This document shows, in pieces, positions 16,366 to 36,514 of a DNA stretch of 64,000 bases (its first letter is position 1; each line of letters begins with the position of its first letter). The notes beneath the pieces were generated by a model. That model was given only the letters and a program-made list of their open reading frames with translations. It had not been told where the DNA came from and did no database searches. This DNA is from Octopus sinensis (taxonomy: Eukaryota), in contig NC_043000.1 in NCBI RefSeq assembly GCF_006345805.1, positions 39,494,001-39,558,000 on the forward strand, written 5' to 3'. Position numbers and translations under genes: made by a program.

Positions 16366-16525
16366 CTAAAAAAAAGTCAAAAGAAAAGAATGAATTACAT
16401 AGACTCAGGCGAGGCTGTGAGTGAAGAAGCTTGATTTGCAACCATATGCTTCCATGTTCAATCTCAGTGCGAGACATCCTGGACTAGAGTCTTCAAATAG
16501 TGACTAAGACTTAACAACGCCTAAG

Positions 16526-16579
<54 letters not shown>

Positions 16580-16582
<3 letters not shown>

Positions 16583-16990
16583 CTTAGGAGTGGGTGTGTG
16601 GTAAGTAGCTTGCTTACGAACCACATGGTTCCGGGTACAGTCCTACTGCGTGGCAACTTGGGCAAGTGTCTTCTACTATAGCCTCGGGCCGACCAAAGCC
16701 TTGTGAGTAGATTTGGTAGACGGAAACTGAAAGAAACCCGTCTTATTTATATATATATGCATATATATATATGTGTGTGTGTGCATGTGTTTGTGTGTCT
16801 GTGTTTGTCCACCCAACATCGCTTGACAACCGATGCTGGTGTGTTCACGTCCCCGTAACTTAGCGGGTTGGCAAAAAGAGACCGATGGAATAAGTACTAG
16901 GCTTTCAAAGAATAAGTCCTGGGGTCGATTTGCTCGACTAAAGGCTGTGCTCCATCATGGCAACAGTCAAATGACTGAAACAAATAAAAG
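16580..16990 (+). repeat. tRNA-derived SINE
   Basis: A-box/B-box-like head (TGGGTGTGTGG...GGTACAGTCC) plus conserved body; other copies at about 7325, 16405, 28270-28640(-), 40645, 51960-52120(-) and 55465-55580(-). Confidence 0.8.
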
Positions 16991-16992
16991 AG

Positions 16993-17033
<41 letters not shown>

Positions 17034-17296
17034 GTGTATATATTCGTATATATATATACATACATACATTTATATATATATATATATATACATATATATA
17101 TACATACAGATATATATATATATATGTATATATATATACATATATATGTATATATATATATATATGTATATATATAAATGTATGTATATATATAAATATA
17201 TGTATGTATATATATGTATATATATGGATATATATATATATGTATATATATACATAAATATATATATATACATATATATGTATATATATATATATG

Positions 17297-17339
<43 letters not shown>

Positions 17340-17420
17340 GTATATATATATTCTTACATATACATACATATATATATATATATACATATATATATACATA
17401 CAAATATATATATATATATA

Positions 17421-17594
17421 GGGGGGCAAAGGAAAGTGATTGCGTCTCTCATAGCCTCTCCTCTCCAGGTGTAATGATCGCTGCAGAACTTGGCTGCGCC
17501 TTGTGGAAAGGTCTTGCTTATGGCCTCTCCTGCACTACTGTGTCCACAGCAGCACCTTCACGCGGTACCCCCTGTTCTCACTGAGCCTGCTGTG
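17421..17594 (+). ncRNA. HDV/CPEB3-like self-cleaving ribozyme at the RTE 5' end
   Basis: P1 GGGGGGC(17421)/ACCCCCT(17567-73); P2 CACAGCAG(17545-52)/CTGCTGTG(17587-94); P3 ACC/GGT; L3 TTCACGC; J4/2 CTGA at 17581; P4 essentially absent. Confidence 0.75.
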
Positions 17595-18158
17595 TGGCGC
17601 GACCGGGTGCTTGGTGGCATAACCAGGTGGGCAGACTTGGCTCGTTAGCCTTGGTTGGCAGCCAGTCTAGGAGAAGGAAAACTCTGACTCCAAACCCTCG
17701 CTCCGCTGCCTTGCGGATGCTCTTGTGAGAGGGAAAGGCTATGGGAGTAAACCCAGACAGAAAATCCGGAGTGGAGCCCCGAAGGCGGTAGGGTGTCGAA
17801 TCTCGACCCCTTTCCGGCAACTCCTGCAGCCAACCAGACTCCAAACGTACTGCACAGCATTCCTTTGGATTATGTCTGGGGGGCCGAGAGGGAGATTCTG
17901 GTGTCTGGGCAGCCCAGCGTCTTCGTTTCTACCGCCCAGGCTTGCGCCATGGAGAAACTACTCCATCGATGGAACAAGCTGAGATGGCAGTTACGAGTTT
18001 TAAGCCAGGGTGAATTGGCGTAATCCCGGGCGCTACGGGCCGTCTCTAACGGTGGGAGGAATCATTGAAGTCCCACTGGTCAGCTACCGCCCGCCTTAAG
18101 CTGGGCAGCCCCCGGCCAATAATGGTGCTGACCCGCCACAGACTGCCCGCTTCAATGG

Positions 18159-21100
18159 GTGCTTGGAGCTAGGACAAAATCTGAAAAGCAGACTGAAAAC
18201 CCTGCACCAGCAAACAAAGGTAAAACAAATACCCAGTCACCAGTCTTGCGACTGGCCACCTGGAATGTCAGGACCATGTGCCCTGGCATCATTGACGATC
18301 TACAACAGATGAACGACAGTAGGAAGACAGCAGTCATCAACACCGAATTGAAAAGGCTGAACATTGATATAGCGGCGCTGCAAGAGACCAGGCTCGCCGC
18401 AGACGGCATGCTACGGGAGAAGGACTACACCTTCTACTGGCAGGGGAGACCCGTCGAGGAGGCCCGCCAGCATGGCGTGGGGTTTGCCGTGAGGAACAGC
18501 TTGCTCCCCATGGCGATCCCTCCTTCAAATGGCTCAGAGCGCATCCTCACTCTTAACCTTGCAACATCAACGGGGAAGGCAAACATAATTAGTGCTTATG
18601 CCCCAACACTCCACTCTCCTCAGGAAATAAAAGACCGGTTCTATGAGGAGCTCGACGCCACCATCAGCCAGATACCAGGGTCGGAGCCCATCTTCCTTCT
18701 GGGCGACTTCAACGCAAGGGTGGGATCCGATCATGGGGCATGGCCAGATTGCCTTGGACGCTTTGGCGTGGGAAAGGTGAATGAGAATGGCCAGAGACTG
18801 TTGGAGCTTTGCTCTTACCGGAAACTCTGCATTTCCAACACATTCTTCATGACTAAGCCGCATCACCAGGTCTCATGGAGGCACCCAAGGTCCGGACACT
18901 GGCACCAACTGGACATGGTCATCACCCGGCGAGCCCACCTCGGCAGTGTGCTTCTCACACTCAGCTACCATGGTGCTGACTGTGATACAGACCACTCTTT
19001 GGTGTGCAGCAGGGTCCGATTGGCCCCAAAGAAAATCAACCGTCCCGTAGGGAAAAGCCGCCCACGCATCAACACCGCCAGGACAACCAACCCCGACCTC
19101 CGCTCGGAATTCACCAACCGCATGGAGGAGGCCCTTAAAGATCACGCAGCCACGTCCATCGAGGAGAGATGGCAAATTATTCGCGACACCACTTGCAGAA
19201 TAGCCATGTCATCCCTAGGAAAGAGGGAGCGGAGAAATCAAGACTGGTTTGAAGCTCACCTGCCTGAGATGGAGCCTTTCATTGCTGCCAAGAGGGAAGC
19301 ACTGGTCAACTATAAGCGCGACCCATCAGAAAAGAACCTGGCTACACTGAGAACAGCCAGAAGCGACGCCCAGAGGACGGCCAGACGTTGCGCCAACATC
19401 TACTGGCAGAACTTATGCCAGAACATCCAGTGCTGTGCTGACAGTGGTAACGTGAAAGGGATGTACGAGGGGATGAAGAAAGCATTCGGGCCCACTGTCA
19501 GAAAGTTTGCTCCACTGAAGTCCAGAGATGGCGAGGTCATCAAGGACCAAGCGAAGCAGATGGAGAGGTGGGTCGAGCATTACCAGAACCTCTACTCCAC
19601 TGAGAATGTGGTCACCAGGTCTGCCCTCGCCGGCATTCCCGCTCTGCCTGTCATGGAGGAGCTTGACCTGCCTCCAACAAAGGAAGAACTGAGCAAAGCA
19701 ATTGACTCAATCGCTCGGGGCAAGGCACCAGGGCAAGACGGCATCCCCGCAGAAGTCATCCAGTGCGGGAAGCCAGCCCTTCTGGGCCATCTCCACGAGC
19801 TGCTTTGTCAGTGCTGGGAGGAGGGCTCTGTCCCTAAGGATATGCGTGACGCAAACATCATCACACTGTATAAAAACAAAGGGGACAGAAGCGACTGCAA
19901 TAATTACAGGGGCATATCGCTGCTCAGCACTGTCGGTAAGGCATTTGCCAGGGTGGTCCTGAAGAGGTTGCAAATACTTGCAGAGCGTGTGTACCCCGAG
20001 TCTCAGTCTGGCTTTAGGGCAGAGAGGTCTACAATCGACATGATCTTCTCACTCAGGCAGCTTCAAGAAAAGAGTCGAGAACAGAGACATCCCCTATACG
20101 TGGCCTTCATCGACCTGGCTAAGGCGTTCGACTCAGTCAGCAGGGAGGGGCTGTTTGCGCTCCTGGGTAGGATAGGTTGCCCTCCCAGACTGCTGAAACT
20201 CATCACCTCCTTTCACGACGGCATGCAGGGAACAGTGCAGTTTGACGGATCGCCCTCGGAGTCGTTCCCCATCCAGAGTGGAGTGAAACAGGGTTGCGTT
20301 CTGGCGCCGACGCTCTTCGGAATTTTCTTCTCCCTTGTCCTGTCCTATGCCTTCAGAACGTCCGACGACGGAGTGTTCCTCCACACCAGGGCTGATGGTG
20401 GATTGTTCAATCTTGCGCACCTCAGAGCTAAGACCAAAGTCTGTCAGGTGCTGATCAGAGAGATCCTCTTTGCTGACGATGCCGCCCTAACATCACACAA
20501 CCAGCCGGGTCTCCAGAGGCTGGTCAGCTCCCTGGCGGATGCCTGCCAAGAGTTCGGCCTTACCATCAGCCTGAAAAAGACAGAGATCATGGGCCAGAAC
20601 GTCGGAGGGGTCCCCAGCATCAGTGTCGGCGACCACAGCTTGCAGGTGATGAACGAGTTCACTTACCTGGGATCGACGGTCTCCAGCAGCCTGTCCCTCG
20701 AGCCGGAGCTGAACAGACGGATTGGGAAGGCTGCTGCTGCCATGGCTAAGCTCTCCAGGAGAGTGTGGGAAAACAACATGATCACAATAACCACCAAGAT
20801 CGCAGTGTACCGAGCCTGCGTGCTGAGCACCCTACTCTACGGCAGCGAGAGCTGGACAACATACACCCGGCAGGAATGCCGCCACAGCGGCTTCCACATG
20901 CGGTGTCTTCGACGGATCCTTGGCATCTCCTGGAAGGACCGAGTACCAAACGGAGTCATCCTAGAACAGACTAATATGCCAAGCATGCATGCCCTCCTTG
21001 TGCGGAGACGACTGCGCTGGCTCGGACACGTCTGCCGCATGTAGAACGGTCGCATGCCTAAAGACATCCTGTACAGCGAACTCACCACGGGATCCCGACC

Positions 21101-21410
21101 CAAGGGACGTCCACAGCTACGATACAGGGATGTGTGCAAGCGCGACCTGAGGACTGCCAACATCTGTGTGGACACGTGGGAGGAAACAGCTGCTGACCGC
21201 TCTGCCTGGCGTCGGACGGTGAGGAAAGGCGTTTCCATGGCTGAGGAAAGGAGAGCACAATTGTGGTTGGACAGGCGGGACAGGAGGAGGACAACTGCAG
21301 CAACACCCTACACGTACCCATCGATGTTCGTGTGCAGCAACTGTACCAAGGACTGCCACTCTAGAATTGGACTGTTCAGTCACAGCAGACGCTGCTCATC
21401 ATCAAAGTAG
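18159..21410 (+). CDS. RTE endonuclease/reverse transcriptase, interrupted by a single TAG at 21042-21044
   Basis: APE motifs (TWNVRT, LQETR, GDFNA, DTDH) and RT motifs (QSGFR, GVKQG, LFADD, YLGS). ORF 21054-21410 continues in the same frame to a terminal C2H2-like motif. Confidence 0.95.
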
Positions 21411-21986
21411 GCCCCACCCTTGGCGCAACCCATTGTCTATCAAGACAGACGGGGAAGAGAGATATATATATACATACATATACATGCATATACAATCACA
21501 CACACACAAATATGTATGCAAAAAGGGAGTGGCACAGAAAGAATGAGATAGAGAGAGAGTGAGAGAGAGTTAACTGACTCTCAACATGGAAAACACATTG
21601 TAGCACTCAAATGATTAAACTTTACGTCTGGATATTTTGCGGAGGACGAAATCATGAAGATACAGTTTGGCTATCAGGGGTATCCAAATCAGCAGATAAG
21701 ATAAACACGGTTCAGATACACAGACAGAATCGAGTTTTGGTGTTTATCTATCAACCCTTACCTATCCCTTACCTTCACCCTGATGAAGGAGGCTTTGGAT
21801 TTTACCAACGATTATTTTATTCCATTACTGGTTGTAGATTTTTGTTGGATACAATCTCCCAACGTTATGCAGTTACTCCGAGTATCCAGAGGGTTCTGTC
21901 AGAACTGTAGCACCATTTCCTCACTAATTCATTTTCTTTGTGTAATCCGAGTTTGTTTTAGCAGATATACATACATACAGACATAT

Positions 21987-22169: not shown

Positions 22170-25100
22170 GAGTAATTGAATGATTATCTTATTAAGGATA
22201 ATTCGAAGGATAACCAATACCTGGGTAGCAAATTCACATCAGAAAGAACACGGTTGAAGCTACGTCGCTAGGGCATAGACTACGTGTCTTCGTGCGGAAA
22301 TTTTTATGTTTATTTTAAAATTATAAGTATATGAAAGAATGGAGTTGAACGACTAGTTAACAAATATCCTTATTCTCGACATATGTTTCGAAGGCTGCAT
22401 ATTCCTAATTCCGAAGAAATAAGGAGTACATTATGCAGATTTCTCTCAGGAAAATCAAGGAAACTTATGTCGACATCAAAATGCACAAAAAACCTTTAGC
22501 TGACCGCTCTCAATGAGCCCATGGCGATAATGAGTGTCTCTTTATAATGAGTGACGTCAGAGTGGCTGAATGTAGAAGAATCTAGAAGTTTCTAAAGGTT
22601 CAAGAGTTCAAACGAAGTAGGAGGAGGGAGGCATAAAAATAGTAAGGTGAGAGAGTGCAGGTCAAAAGAATGGTGGGTTTAAATGATTTCTTTTGTGAAT
22701 GAGTGCCTGTGTGTGTGACTGTATATCATCATCATCATCATCATCGTTTAGCGTCCGTTTTCCATGCTAGCATGGGTTGGACGGGTCAACTGGGGTCTGT
22801 GAAGCTGGAAGCTTCGTCAGGCCCAGTCAGATCTGGCAGTGTTTCTACGGCTGGATGCCCTTCCTAACGCCAAACACTCCGCGAGTGTAGTGGGTGTTTT
22901 TTACGTGCCACCTGCACAGGTGCCAGACAGAGCTGGCGAACGGCCACGAACGGATGGTGCTTTTACGTGTCACCGGCACGGGGCCAGGCGATGCTGGCAA
23001 CGGACACGAACGGATGGTGCTTTTACGTGTCACCGGCACGGGGGCCAGCCGAGGCTGGCAACGGACACGGACGGATGGTGCTTTTACGTGCCACCGACAC
23101 GGGCCAGACAGAGCTGGCAAACGGCCACGAACGGATAACTGTCTTAATGTGTGTATGTGTGTGTCTGAATGCGTGATTGTGTTTGTGGATTGGTAGAAGT
23201 CAGAAAACTGACAGCTGTGAGTTGGAAGGTCTGTATCTGGTGTTCGATTATGTTTACTGTAGGGAAAGGAAAGTAGATAGCGAAAGGGAGAAAGAATCGA
23301 GCGAGGTGAGAGGCAACGCAAGAATGGATAGTAGTAATTGGAATATAAGAAAATCTTTTTTGACTATTGGGGTGAAATATAGCAAAAAAAATTGGGGGAA
23401 TTCGAGGGGTTATCTATATTAGTCACTATTTATATGAATGAAAGGTGTGTTCTTTCCAGTGTAAGCACCTGTAGGATCTTTCGACGATTGTGTTTATTAA
23501 AGGGCCTTTGGCGAACAAAATATGAAAAAGTTCGGAATTACAGATGCCACAAAATTTTCTGCCTTTATCAAACGGGAAGGACACCGACAAAATGGACCAT
23601 TCGAGCTTGAACGTAGTGTTATTGTTCTTCAGACGCCAGACTAATTTGCTTAGCCCCGTGCTGTGTTGCTTTCTCTTCTCTGAAAGTGGAATAATGGTTG
23701 AAGACTCTTTGGGCTAATTTAGAAGAGGTTGCGCCAATATAGAAGTAGACATCGGTCCAGAAGAGATTTTGCATTGGTAAGTGGTGTTTCTAATTTTGGA
23801 ATTTTTGGATAAGAACTTTAATCTGTTGGGGTTGGTTTCCGATACTAAGACAGAGTTTTTATTGTTGTGATAGGGTAAAAATTGTTGCTGGTTTTGGCTA
23901 CGATACTATTCCTCTTATTATCATTACTATTAGTTATAATATCGTCGGCAAATTCCCTGGCTATAGGATTGCTGCGATTGTTATCATCAATAATATAACT
24001 GTTATTAGAATGCTGGTACTATTACCACTAACACCACCACTGTTAATAATCTGGCTAATGTTATTATCATTATTACTATTGCTAACGCTAATGCTGCTAT
24101 GAATGTTGCTAATATCCATACTACTTCTATTATTATTATTATTGTATGTTACGTGGAAGGGTAAGGGCGGTGTCGCTACTCATGGGTGGAGAGACCCATT
24201 TTAGCAGCTTATTATTGTGGGAAGCTATTATCTGCGAAAGATTTTTAGTATTTGAGAATGCTATTCTAACTTTATGCGAATTTATAGTGGAGTAGTATCT
24301 AGAATTCATAGGAAAATTCTTAGTAACGGCTTCACGGAATTGTAAAGGGAGATTAGACCTGATTTGTCTCCCGAAAGGAATCACAAACCAGATATAGTTT
24401 TTTTTGTTCTTGGAATGGCTGAGAGTGTTGACATTTACATTAAAGGGTATATTTCTGTGTTGTAGAATGGGTTTTGTTTACGCTGGTTTACCCTAGTCCG
24501 TAAGTATTATTGGTAAAAATATATTTGTGTCGACGTTTCTAGAGCTGAAATCACTATTTATGTTATTTATATTATTATTAGAAGTTATCTTATCTTGATG
24601 GGCAGATATTAGTTTAGGATGGGCCGGATCGATATATGATACCTTATCCCTATAACCGGCTTTTGACAAAGCGGCATTATAAAATTCTGCTTTCTGTTTA
24701 AAAATGTCGACATTTGCTGATAACTGAGATAGTCTTAAGGATATATTTTTAACCAAATTATCGGTGATAGTTTTTGCATGGTTACTGAAAATACTGACAT
24801 ATTTTAGGTTCGTAGACGGCTTATGGTAAGGGAAGTAAGAATTATTATGCAAATTTAGGGTAACATCTAAGAAATTGGCCTTAGTTAGTTCGTTGTCAAA
24901 AATTATGCTCATGCCCATCCTGCTGAAAAATCTAACTAATCTATTTTTAGTCTTCTGTATCCTACTGTTAGGGGCATTATGTAGGTAAAAAAGACAATCG
25001 TCTCGATACAGACCGCCGCATATGTCCGGGAATTAGTCGGCTAATTCATATAGAATATAGATTCCGACCAAATCGGCCACCTGGGCGCTATCTGAGCTTC

Positions 25101-34888: not shown

Positions 34889-36514
34889 CAGTTCCGGTCA
34901 AAATGTTCCGAACGGCATTGTTTTCGTCAGAAAAGTAGATATACGTTTTTATCAAAGTTGTTTTGTATTCTATAATTTTCACAGACAATAAATACAATAT
35001 TATTTGTTATTGTCTGAGATTTTGGTGTAATTTGAGAAGATAATAAAAAAGTTATGGATGATTTAGTGATTTACTGCAAAACCCTTGGCGGCCAAAATGA
35101 TCAGAACGGTTGCTTTTATTCCATGTTTTAGTATATTTAACCGTCGAACTCTAATGTTTTGAATTTGTTTACGTGACAGTTCATTTACTAAACATTAGTA
35201 AGAATATCTGCAGTGTACTTTGTTAATATAATGCCACTTACTCCGTTACCAATTCGTCAGCAGATTATTAAGCTTCGAAAGAAGGATAATTTAAGTATTA
35301 GGTCTATTGCAAAGATTGTTAACAAGTCAAAAAGTGTTGTTCACGGTATTCTTAAGGTCTACGATGATTGTGGTTCGTGTGAAGCAAGAAAGTCAACAGG
35401 TAGGCCAAGAAAAACGACCAAGAGAGAAGATCGTGCTATGGTAAAGTTGGTTAAAAAGGACAGATTTAAAACTGCTGCTGCTGTTTTTCGGGAAATGAGC
35501 ATTGTACTGAAGAAAACTTTATCTCGAAAAACTGTCTCGTCCTTTAGTTGAACATGACCTACAAGCAAGAGCACCTGCAGTGAAGCCACTGGTCAGCTCT
35601 AAGAATAAAAAGTGTCGTCTTACCTTTGCAACCGAACATGTGTTGTGGTCTCAAGAAAAATGGCAAATGGTGCATTTCAGTGATGAATCTAAGTCTATGT
35701 TATTTGGCTCAGATGGGAAAAAGTACGTTCGTCGAAAAGCAGGTGAAAAATTGTCACCTAAATGCCTTAAGACTAGTGTTAAATTCGGTGGAGGAAGTGT
35801 CATGGTTTGGGGGATGATATCTGGAGATGTTGTGGGCCCTTTGCTGCGATTACATGGAAAGGTAAATGCAGGAATTTATAAACAACTTGTAAAAGATCAT
35901 GTCTTGCCTGTGCTGAGAAATTCAACTAAGCGACCACCCATATTCATGCAGGACAATGCCCCATGTCACAAGGCTAAAGTGGTCATGAACTTCCTCAAGG
36001 ATGAAAAGGTTATTGTTATGGAATGGCCTGCTCAAAGCCCAGACCTCAATCCTATTGAAAATGTGTGGAATATTCTAGGAGAACGTTTGAAAGCCAGAAA
36101 TCCTAAAACAACCGAGCAATTATGGAATGCCCTTCAGGTGAATGGAATAAGATCACCCAGCAAGAAATTGAAAATTTAATTTCCCCATGCAGTCAAAAAT
36201 GTCAAACTTTGATTGAAGCTAAAGGGCTTCACACTAAATATGAATTAATTCCAGCATTCTCTGTCACTTTTTGATTATTTGTTATTTTTTCAACCGTTCT
36301 GATCATTTTGGCCACCATGGGTTTTGCAGTAAATCACTATATCATCCATAACTTTTGTATTATCCACTCAAATTACACCAAAATCTCGGACAATACCAAT
36401 TAATATCGTATTTATTGTCTGTGAAAATCATAGAATATAAAACAACTTTAATAAAGACTTATATCTACTTTTCTGACGAAAACACTGCCGTTCTGAACAT
36501 TTTGGCCGCAACTG
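34889..36514 (+). mobile_element. Tc1-family transposon with ~225-bp IR-DR type TIRs; frameshifted transposase at about 35231-36242
   Basis: TA|CAGTT...AACTG|TA ends; FSDESK, FMQDNAPCH, WPAQSPDLNPIENVW (DD34E); GRPRKTT. Confidence 0.95.

Follow-up and report, generated by a model that had tools for sequence, protein, structure and literature searches.

The first 174 nt of an RTE-type LINE in the octopus genome are predicted to form an HDV-like ribozyme with a long J1/2 and no P4, and our analysis suggests that RNA of this element, transcribed from upstream of it or from just before it, probably cuts itself at 17420/17421 and keeps the ribozyme. Positions are those of the window, the whole stretch of 64,000 nucleotides of Octopus sinensis DNA analysed here, and feature coordinates are collected in Table 1. 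An earlier note on this DNA had drawn the ribozyme and placed it at the 5' end of the element; its claims are taken up where the results bear on them.

Host element and its 5' end

Judged by its architecture, the element is a LINE of RTE type, as the earlier note had it. It forms a 4.04-kb island of 55% GC between TA repeats, and has the layout of the RTE clade: a single ORF with endonuclease (PF03372) and then reverse transcriptase (PF00078) domains, no ORF1, a short 3' UTR with a hairpin and a simple-repeat tail, and 5'-truncated copies. A premature TAG at 21042-21044 in the window copy is CAG in all eight other copies that match the anchor. Homologues of the ORF number 708 proteins (57–74% identity among the 120 listed), with named cluster members from corals, lancelet, snail and starfish; the name 'craniofacial development protein 2-like', which we take to be typical of RTE endonucleases, is borne by some of them. 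An in-frame AUG before the first endonuclease motif (18132-18278 in the window) is absent from 19 of 19 copies, and the ORF likely has a non-standard translation start. A five-codon ORF lies out of frame at 18155-18172.

Elsewhere in the window, a near-identical duplicated block (44234-46522 and 46735-49027) with a retrotransposon-like ORF flanks a run of Ns and is possibly an assembly duplication. There is also an ORF at 35511-36179, which presumably resembles a Tc1/mariner transposase, and a tandem array of about four copies of a 61-nt GC-rich unit at 22899-23136.

G17421 directly follows the TA tract, as had been noted, and TA-rich flanks surround most family copies in the 2.72-Gb genome that was searched. 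A 5' probe gave 130 candidates (40 scored, 30 fetched). Leaving aside the window copy, 24 of 29 have base 1 as their first base, and their flanks are not shared. A second probe, placed downstream of the ribozyme, gave 134 candidates (40 scored, 30 fetched, the window copy included); among these 30 copies, 18 have their start at base 1, 21 have it somewhere in bases 1-3, one starts at base 7, eight are 5'-truncated, and none extends the family upstream of base 1. With a probe that lies outside the ribozyme, these 18 starts bear out the claim that the ribozyme sits at the exact 5' end of the element. When all distinct copies are pooled, base 1 is the start of 33 of 57, and base 1 or 2 that of 39. 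The base at -1 is not conserved among 44 copies (A in 16, T in 14, G in 9, C in 5), so the first base of the family is G17421 and not A17420. With G at -1 in 9 of 44 copies, the 5' end is exact to within a variable G run, the extra 5' Gs numbering 1 to 5 per copy.

Predicted ribozyme fold

The stretch 17421..17594 follows the HDV-like order P1, P2, P3, L3, P1', P1.1, J4/2, P2', and reading of the sequence located every pairing of the nested double pseudoknot where the earlier note had drawn it. P1 (17421-17427 with 17567-17573) consists, as drawn, of a G.U pair, five G-C pairs and one C x A mismatch; six pairs with the mismatch at the top, where it is tolerated, fall within the 6-7 bp from the cleavage base that characterize an HDV-like P1 (PMC3774820). 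The length of about 117 nt given for J1/2 is that of the window copy, and in 28 of 29 other aligned copies J1/2 has 123 nt; a 6-nt block is present in all 29 other copies and absent from the window copy. J1/2 has no unusually stable fold (z 0.31). The eight base pairs proposed for P2 were borne out, but P2 is better drawn with nine and a bulged C (-10.6 vs -10.0 kcal/mol): C17553 can pair with G17585, upon which P2 stacks directly on P3 and J4/2 is left with four bases. P3 is ACC/GGU (17554-56/17564-66), L3 is UUCACGC, and P1.1 is the single pair C17559-G17574, all as proposed; a 3-bp P3, a 7-nt L3 and a P1.1 in the published range of 1-2 bp (PMC3185411) are HDV-like. The description of P4 as almost absent was also accurate, since six unpaired nucleotides, 17575-17580, take its place. 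The P4 stem of HDV-like ribozymes is thus missing here; it is dispensable in known members and is absent from minimal HDV-like ribozymes. The catalytic-C context CUGA is present in J4/2, where C17581, the predicted catalytic base, aligns to the C of the Rfam CPEB3 model and the conserved A is found. A17420, at -1, is unable to extend P1 against G17574.

Table 1. Features of the octopus RTE element and its predicted 5' ribozyme (window coordinates)
Feature	Coordinates	Strand	Remarks
(TA)n-rich tract, insertion target	16993..17420	.	A at -1
P1 5' strand	17421..17427	+	G17421 = predicted first base after cleavage and family 5' end
J1/2, 117 nt	17428..17544	+	lacks 6-nt block found in other copies
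P2 5' strand	17545..17553	+	
P3 (3 bp) and L3	17554..17566	+	C17559 is the P1.1 partner
P1 3' strand (17567-73) and G17574 of 1-bp P1.1	17567..17574	+	
Six nt in place of P4	17575..17580	+	5 nt in Rfam alignment vs 18 in model
J4/2, predicted catalytic C17581	17581..17584	+	C in 43/44 copies
P2 3' strand, one bulged C	17585..17594	+	
Structured UTR domain	17595..17700	+	part common to other repeats and distant RTE-type locus L262
5' UTR body	17700..18242	+	homologous to second RTE family and L061
Internal hairpin	17947..17973	+	UTR-only copies end after it, 17967-17975
Single ORF	18132..21410	+	APE endonuclease, reverse transcriptase, C-terminal CCHH motif
3' hairpin and short GA-rich tail, then TA repeats	21429..21462	+	

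An HDV-like descriptor, written from general rules after the candidate was known, had a single match on both strands of the window, at 17421. When the 4,040-nt element was shuffled 1,500 times with its dinucleotides preserved, five shuffles gave any descriptor match, none gave a P2 of at least 8 bp and none gave a match starting in the first 3 nt. Rfam reported no ribozyme family on 16500-19000 or 17421-18200, a miss on these longer stretches that is likely caused by the long J1/2. On the 56-nt core (17545-17600), RF00622, the CPEB3 ribozyme, was the only family reported among 4,227, with a 5'-truncated alignment of 11 bits (E 0.91) against a cut-off of 35. The likeness to CPEB3 that had been proposed therefore stands for the core, which is similar, and fails at the family cut-off, so that we call the motif CPEB3-like and not a member of the CPEB3 family. 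By manual count, 30 of the 43 displayed model positions are identical to the core, and at three visible pairs, two in P3 and the one at the top of P2, both partners differ from the CPEB3 consensus. Exact matches to a 25-nt core sequence number 34 in the genome, against 0 for the reversed control, and looser core patterns found the element family and isolated other matches only.

Similarity among the copies of the family is about 96%. Per-cell variation amounts to 0.0165 for the core, against 0.0205 for J1/2 and 0.0143 for the sequence downstream, so conservation of the core does not exceed that of the other UTR parts, and its sole common variant is a CpG change in L3. All pairs and key bases are intact in 23 of 44 copies, the others having breaks or clipped 5' ends, and every fold element is intact in the commonest letters of this young family. 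No compensatory pair was seen among the 44 near-identical copies, whose youth makes covariation unreadable; the pattern is one of neutral decay after insertion, which neither supports nor refutes selection.

Competing folds cast real doubt on how efficient the predicted ribozyme would be. In the models used, which are unable to score a pseudoknot, a 4-bp hairpin at 17574-17586 that would bury C17581 is 3.5 kcal/mol better in the nested model, and in the free fold the G run is paired inside J1/2. In a prefix that ends at G17574, G1-G5 of the G run have a probability of 0.91-0.99 of being paired to the C run; the correct P1 register has a probability of 0.31-0.37 in this nascent prefix and of 0.02 when the upstream flank from the window is included. 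The nested folding z-score is 1.11.

Short copies that end in the 5' UTR

Among the 57 pooled copies, a sample biased toward those that keep the 5' part, 42 are bounded in the fetched DNA; 27 of these are 5'-UTR only, with ends inside the first 660 nt, 13 extend to the true 3' end and two end elsewhere. The ends of 18 of the 42 fall at nt 547-555, just after an internal hairpin (UTR-only loci near this position are L112, L145, L149, L151, L152, L158, L161, L167, L181, L188 and L189). With the downstream probe, 11 of 30 copies end at 550-555, four of them being also 5'-truncated. Two copies that end at 608 have a common junction and may be one insertion. L112 and L145 lie in non-repeat flanks with 11-bp target duplications, which are unreadable in most other short copies because these are sited in TA repeats. 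Three short-copy junctions recur in contigs of other runs, among which the source sample may be included. The second RTE family of the genome, described below, lacks such a pile-up (1 of 30 copies ends in the UTR), and its homologous segment differs. Three bipartite copies (L159, L173, L182) were also seen, in which the 5' UTR up to nt 579-649 is joined to the last 170 nt.

Our preferred reading of the UTR-only copies is internal priming by the element's reverse transcriptase, which would often start at the internal hairpin near nt 550 and not at the 3' tail; such priming on element RNA would give short, ribozyme-headed copies. The internal hairpin has a layout like that of the 3' hairpin in topology only, and in local alignment their likeness ties with other UTR windows and is not significant. 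We give a lesser but appreciable chance to an origin from RNAs whose own end lies at about nt 550-580, through termination, processing or polyadenylation, or from a distinct short master. In favour of this origin, a poly(A) run is found at nt 547 in one copy, and the first T4 run, at 17998, is directly preceded by the ends of two copies; yet the T4 run is present in only 15 of 28 copies, some short copies pass beyond it, and most ends lie 25-30 nt upstream of it. Against a single short master, short and long copies are interleaved on the copy tree (14 label changes vs 14.7-14.9 in shuffles), a tree that is poorly resolved, with 2 of 40 branches strongly supported, and so leaves room for such a master.

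A SINE-like repeat occupies 16582-16990 on the + strand, 430-840 nt upstream of the ribozyme, and three more are present in the window; no run of four Ts occurs between this repeat and 17998. Polymerase III read-through from the repeat was considered and rejected, as no enrichment was found (the repeat was present in 7 of 33 flanks and in either orientation).

Related families and CPEB3-scoring repeats

A second RTE family in the genome (L055-L060, L305-L334) is larger and has an endonuclease of 68% identity. The UTR is common to our element, this family and the metagenome locus L061 from about 17700 on, but the first 280 nt are not. The second family has a different 5' module with a fixed 5' region, and the HDV-like fold was not found in it. 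Many of its copies have the same 25-nt upstream flank, which suggests a specific target or a longer 5' end. A genome pattern for sister families with the downstream UTR motif found none. Scans of sequence collections gave 4 metagenome, 0 viral and 17 prokaryote RTE-related loci; the latter (L258-L274) are in contigs filed as bacterial genomes and are probably eukaryotic contamination. A relaxed scan, which had no intact positive control and which also missed 15 decayed CPEB3-scoring repeats, detected no HDV-like fold upstream of 17 of the 21 loci (all 4 and 13 of the 17, four short contigs having no upstream part), of which many are short or decayed. None of 45 viral pattern matches had a full HDV-like fold. 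As the fold was found neither in the second family nor at these 17 loci, the ribozyme module looks lineage-specific, gained or swapped.

Against the octopus genome, RF00622 gave 28 matches among 59 scored candidates, two of them over the cut-off, which none of 14 control genomes passed; the window core is not among the 28. The 15 matches that were fetched (L095-L109; for example G000:C17:12617897-12617975 and G000:C10:21805898-21805971) are decayed repeats of at least two kinds, with a short J1/2 and a full P4. Across 14 of these old repeats the full HDV structure pairs in 77% of cells, compared with 35-49% when slid, and the covariation score was reached by 5 of 500 shuffles, a result that relatedness inflates. 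L099 and L100 run into a decayed endonuclease-like frame whose look we take to be Vingi/Ingi-like; Pfam recognised nothing in the frame after L099. A direct graft from these repeats onto our element was rejected as unsupported, since a profile of 12 of them did not detect the window core. The letters shared in the P2 scaffold would favour descent as the source of the CPEB3 likeness; convergence on active-site sequence has been discussed for R2 (PMC3774820).

Discussion

As predicted here, transcription would start upstream of the element or just before it, P1 would form as nt 147-153 emerge, and P2 would then close the pseudoknot. C17581, acting as in other HDV-like ribozymes, would cut between A17420 and G17421, giving an RNA 5' end at the base where most genomic copies begin. 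The cut RNA would keep the ribozyme, so that each full-length insertion would again be self-trimming. The order of folding, the catalysis and the source of transcription are inferred from published relatives. [quoted passage not shown]

An internal promoter that sets the 5' end at G17421, with the fold a module passed down in a weak or dead state, or else subordinate to the promoter, is unlikely, but is the most credible alternative to self-cleavage. A fixed 5' end would be expected from a promoter as well as from self-processing out of read-through transcripts, which the earlier note proposed; the competing folds count in favour of a promoter, and so does the sister family, which has a fixed 5' region without an HDV-like fold. 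Cap copying is known for L1, and it could account for the extra G at -1 in 9 of 44 copies; extra Gs numbering 1 to 5, however, fit slippage in the G run better than a cap. In L1Tc, both functions reside in the same 77 nt (PMC3185411). Against the promoter are the fold, which is intact in the commonest letters, and P1, which begins with its G.U pair exactly at base 1. A pseudoknot without catalytic function, kept to shield an uncapped 5' end or to aid the start of translation, is improbable. The ORF does lack an in-frame AUG before the first endonuclease motif, P4 is absent, and R2 ribozyme folds have been described as cap-like protection (PMC13708176); a purely structural role, however, would need none of the catalytic C, the J4/2 A, the L3 G and the G1.U pair, all of which are present. 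An accidental origin of the pairings, in a UTR rich in GC, is very improbable, for although the descriptor was composed after the candidate was known, the Rfam score is far under its cut-off and the nested z-score is 1.11, none of the shuffles matched its P2 or its starting position, and CPEB3 is the sole Rfam family for the core, with changes on both sides of pairs.

The predicted P4-less fold has close parallels. The published RTE HDV-like ribozymes (2011; cited through PMC3774820 and PMC5786205) have the same RTE-type host, nested double pseudoknot and predicted cut at the first base of the element; relative to them, the octopus motif lacks a whole-motif Rfam match and has 6 nt in place of P4. 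Silkmoth R2 ribozymes, which also have a long J1/2 and no P4, are active, that of B. mori weakly (PMC3774820), and the abalone HDV-like ribozyme cited in the same paper has 5 nt in place of P4. R2, in contrast, is an RLE-type element in 28S rDNA whose P1 5' strand is derived from the target, whereas the P1 5' strand in the octopus is encoded by the element and J1/2 is 117-123 nt, against 216-498 nt in R2 (PMC3774820). The mammalian CPEB3 ribozyme (RF00622) has the same start of L3, 1-bp P1.1 and P2 core, and A17567 corresponds, by our numbering, to its position 30, at which G30A is a natural variant (PMC8233481). The octopus motif differs from it in its 117-nt J1/2, absent P4 and different P3, and in being the end of a multi-copy retrotransposon, with at least 34 dispersed copies on a LINE, and not a single intronic locus. 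L1TcRz/Pr77 of L1Tc and NARTc is likewise a 5'-terminal HDV-like ribozyme of an APE-type LINE that is also carried by short non-autonomous copies; it differs in being compact (77 nt), in having P4 and in its shown promoter activity, and NARTc-type derivatives keep the 3' end, which the octopus short copies lack (PMC3185411). In Perere-3, an RTE 5' end is again defined by a ribozyme, but one of another class, twister, with part of P1 supplied by the target duplication (PMC8501958).

Pieces of RTE 5' UTRs are known parts of SINEs, and bipartite non-autonomous RTE derivatives have been described (PMC5786205), of which the octopus family also has examples. The commonest octopus short form differs from these in being 5'-UTR only with a fixed internal 3' end; a similar case, MARE3, was interpreted as a truncated consensus (PMC5786205). 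A thin literature search found no description of a 5'-only class of RTE derivatives. We found no published report of an octopus HDV-like ribozyme, and the supplements of ribozyme surveys could list this family; a literature search for self-cleaving RTE ribozymes in molluscs gave one review only. The available text of PMC9115989 and of PMC13282606 does not contain the word ribozyme, and that of a 2026 preprint on ribozyme discovery names neither octopus nor RTE.

Taken together with the old repeats, these copies point, tentatively and with less expectation than we attach to the other origin of the short copies, to a broader scenario in which a CPEB3-type ribozyme was grafted onto an RTE 5' end, the internal hairpin came to be used as a 3' end by the element's own reverse transcriptase to give UTR-only mini-elements, and the mammalian CPEB3 ribozyme is a domesticated LINE 5' end. 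The portions of the literature available to us do not raise such an origin: in PMC8233481 a retrotransposon origin of the CPEB3 ribozyme is not mentioned, and in PMC10919898 none is proposed. If the scenario is true, one autonomous LINE repeatedly sheds mini-elements, and RTE 5' UTRs would thereby have a direct way of becoming SINE bodies.

The predicted ribozyme would extend the published RTE mechanism to a young RTE family of a cephalopod genome, and cephalopod RTE elements draw attention for their expression in the brain (PMC9115989). Its activity, if confirmed, would account for the way in which such elements acquire a defined 5' end from transcription by the host. It is also a natural P4-less, long-J1/2 variant with a CPEB3-like core that is available for assay. 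The UTR-only copies and the CPEB3-scoring repeats may be worth more than the ribozyme itself. The UTR-only copies make internal priming by an RTE protein testable, with bearing on the origin of SINE bodies and on the design of templates for RTE-based gene insertion tools, and the old CPEB3-scoring repeats are a lead on where the mammalian ribozyme originated.
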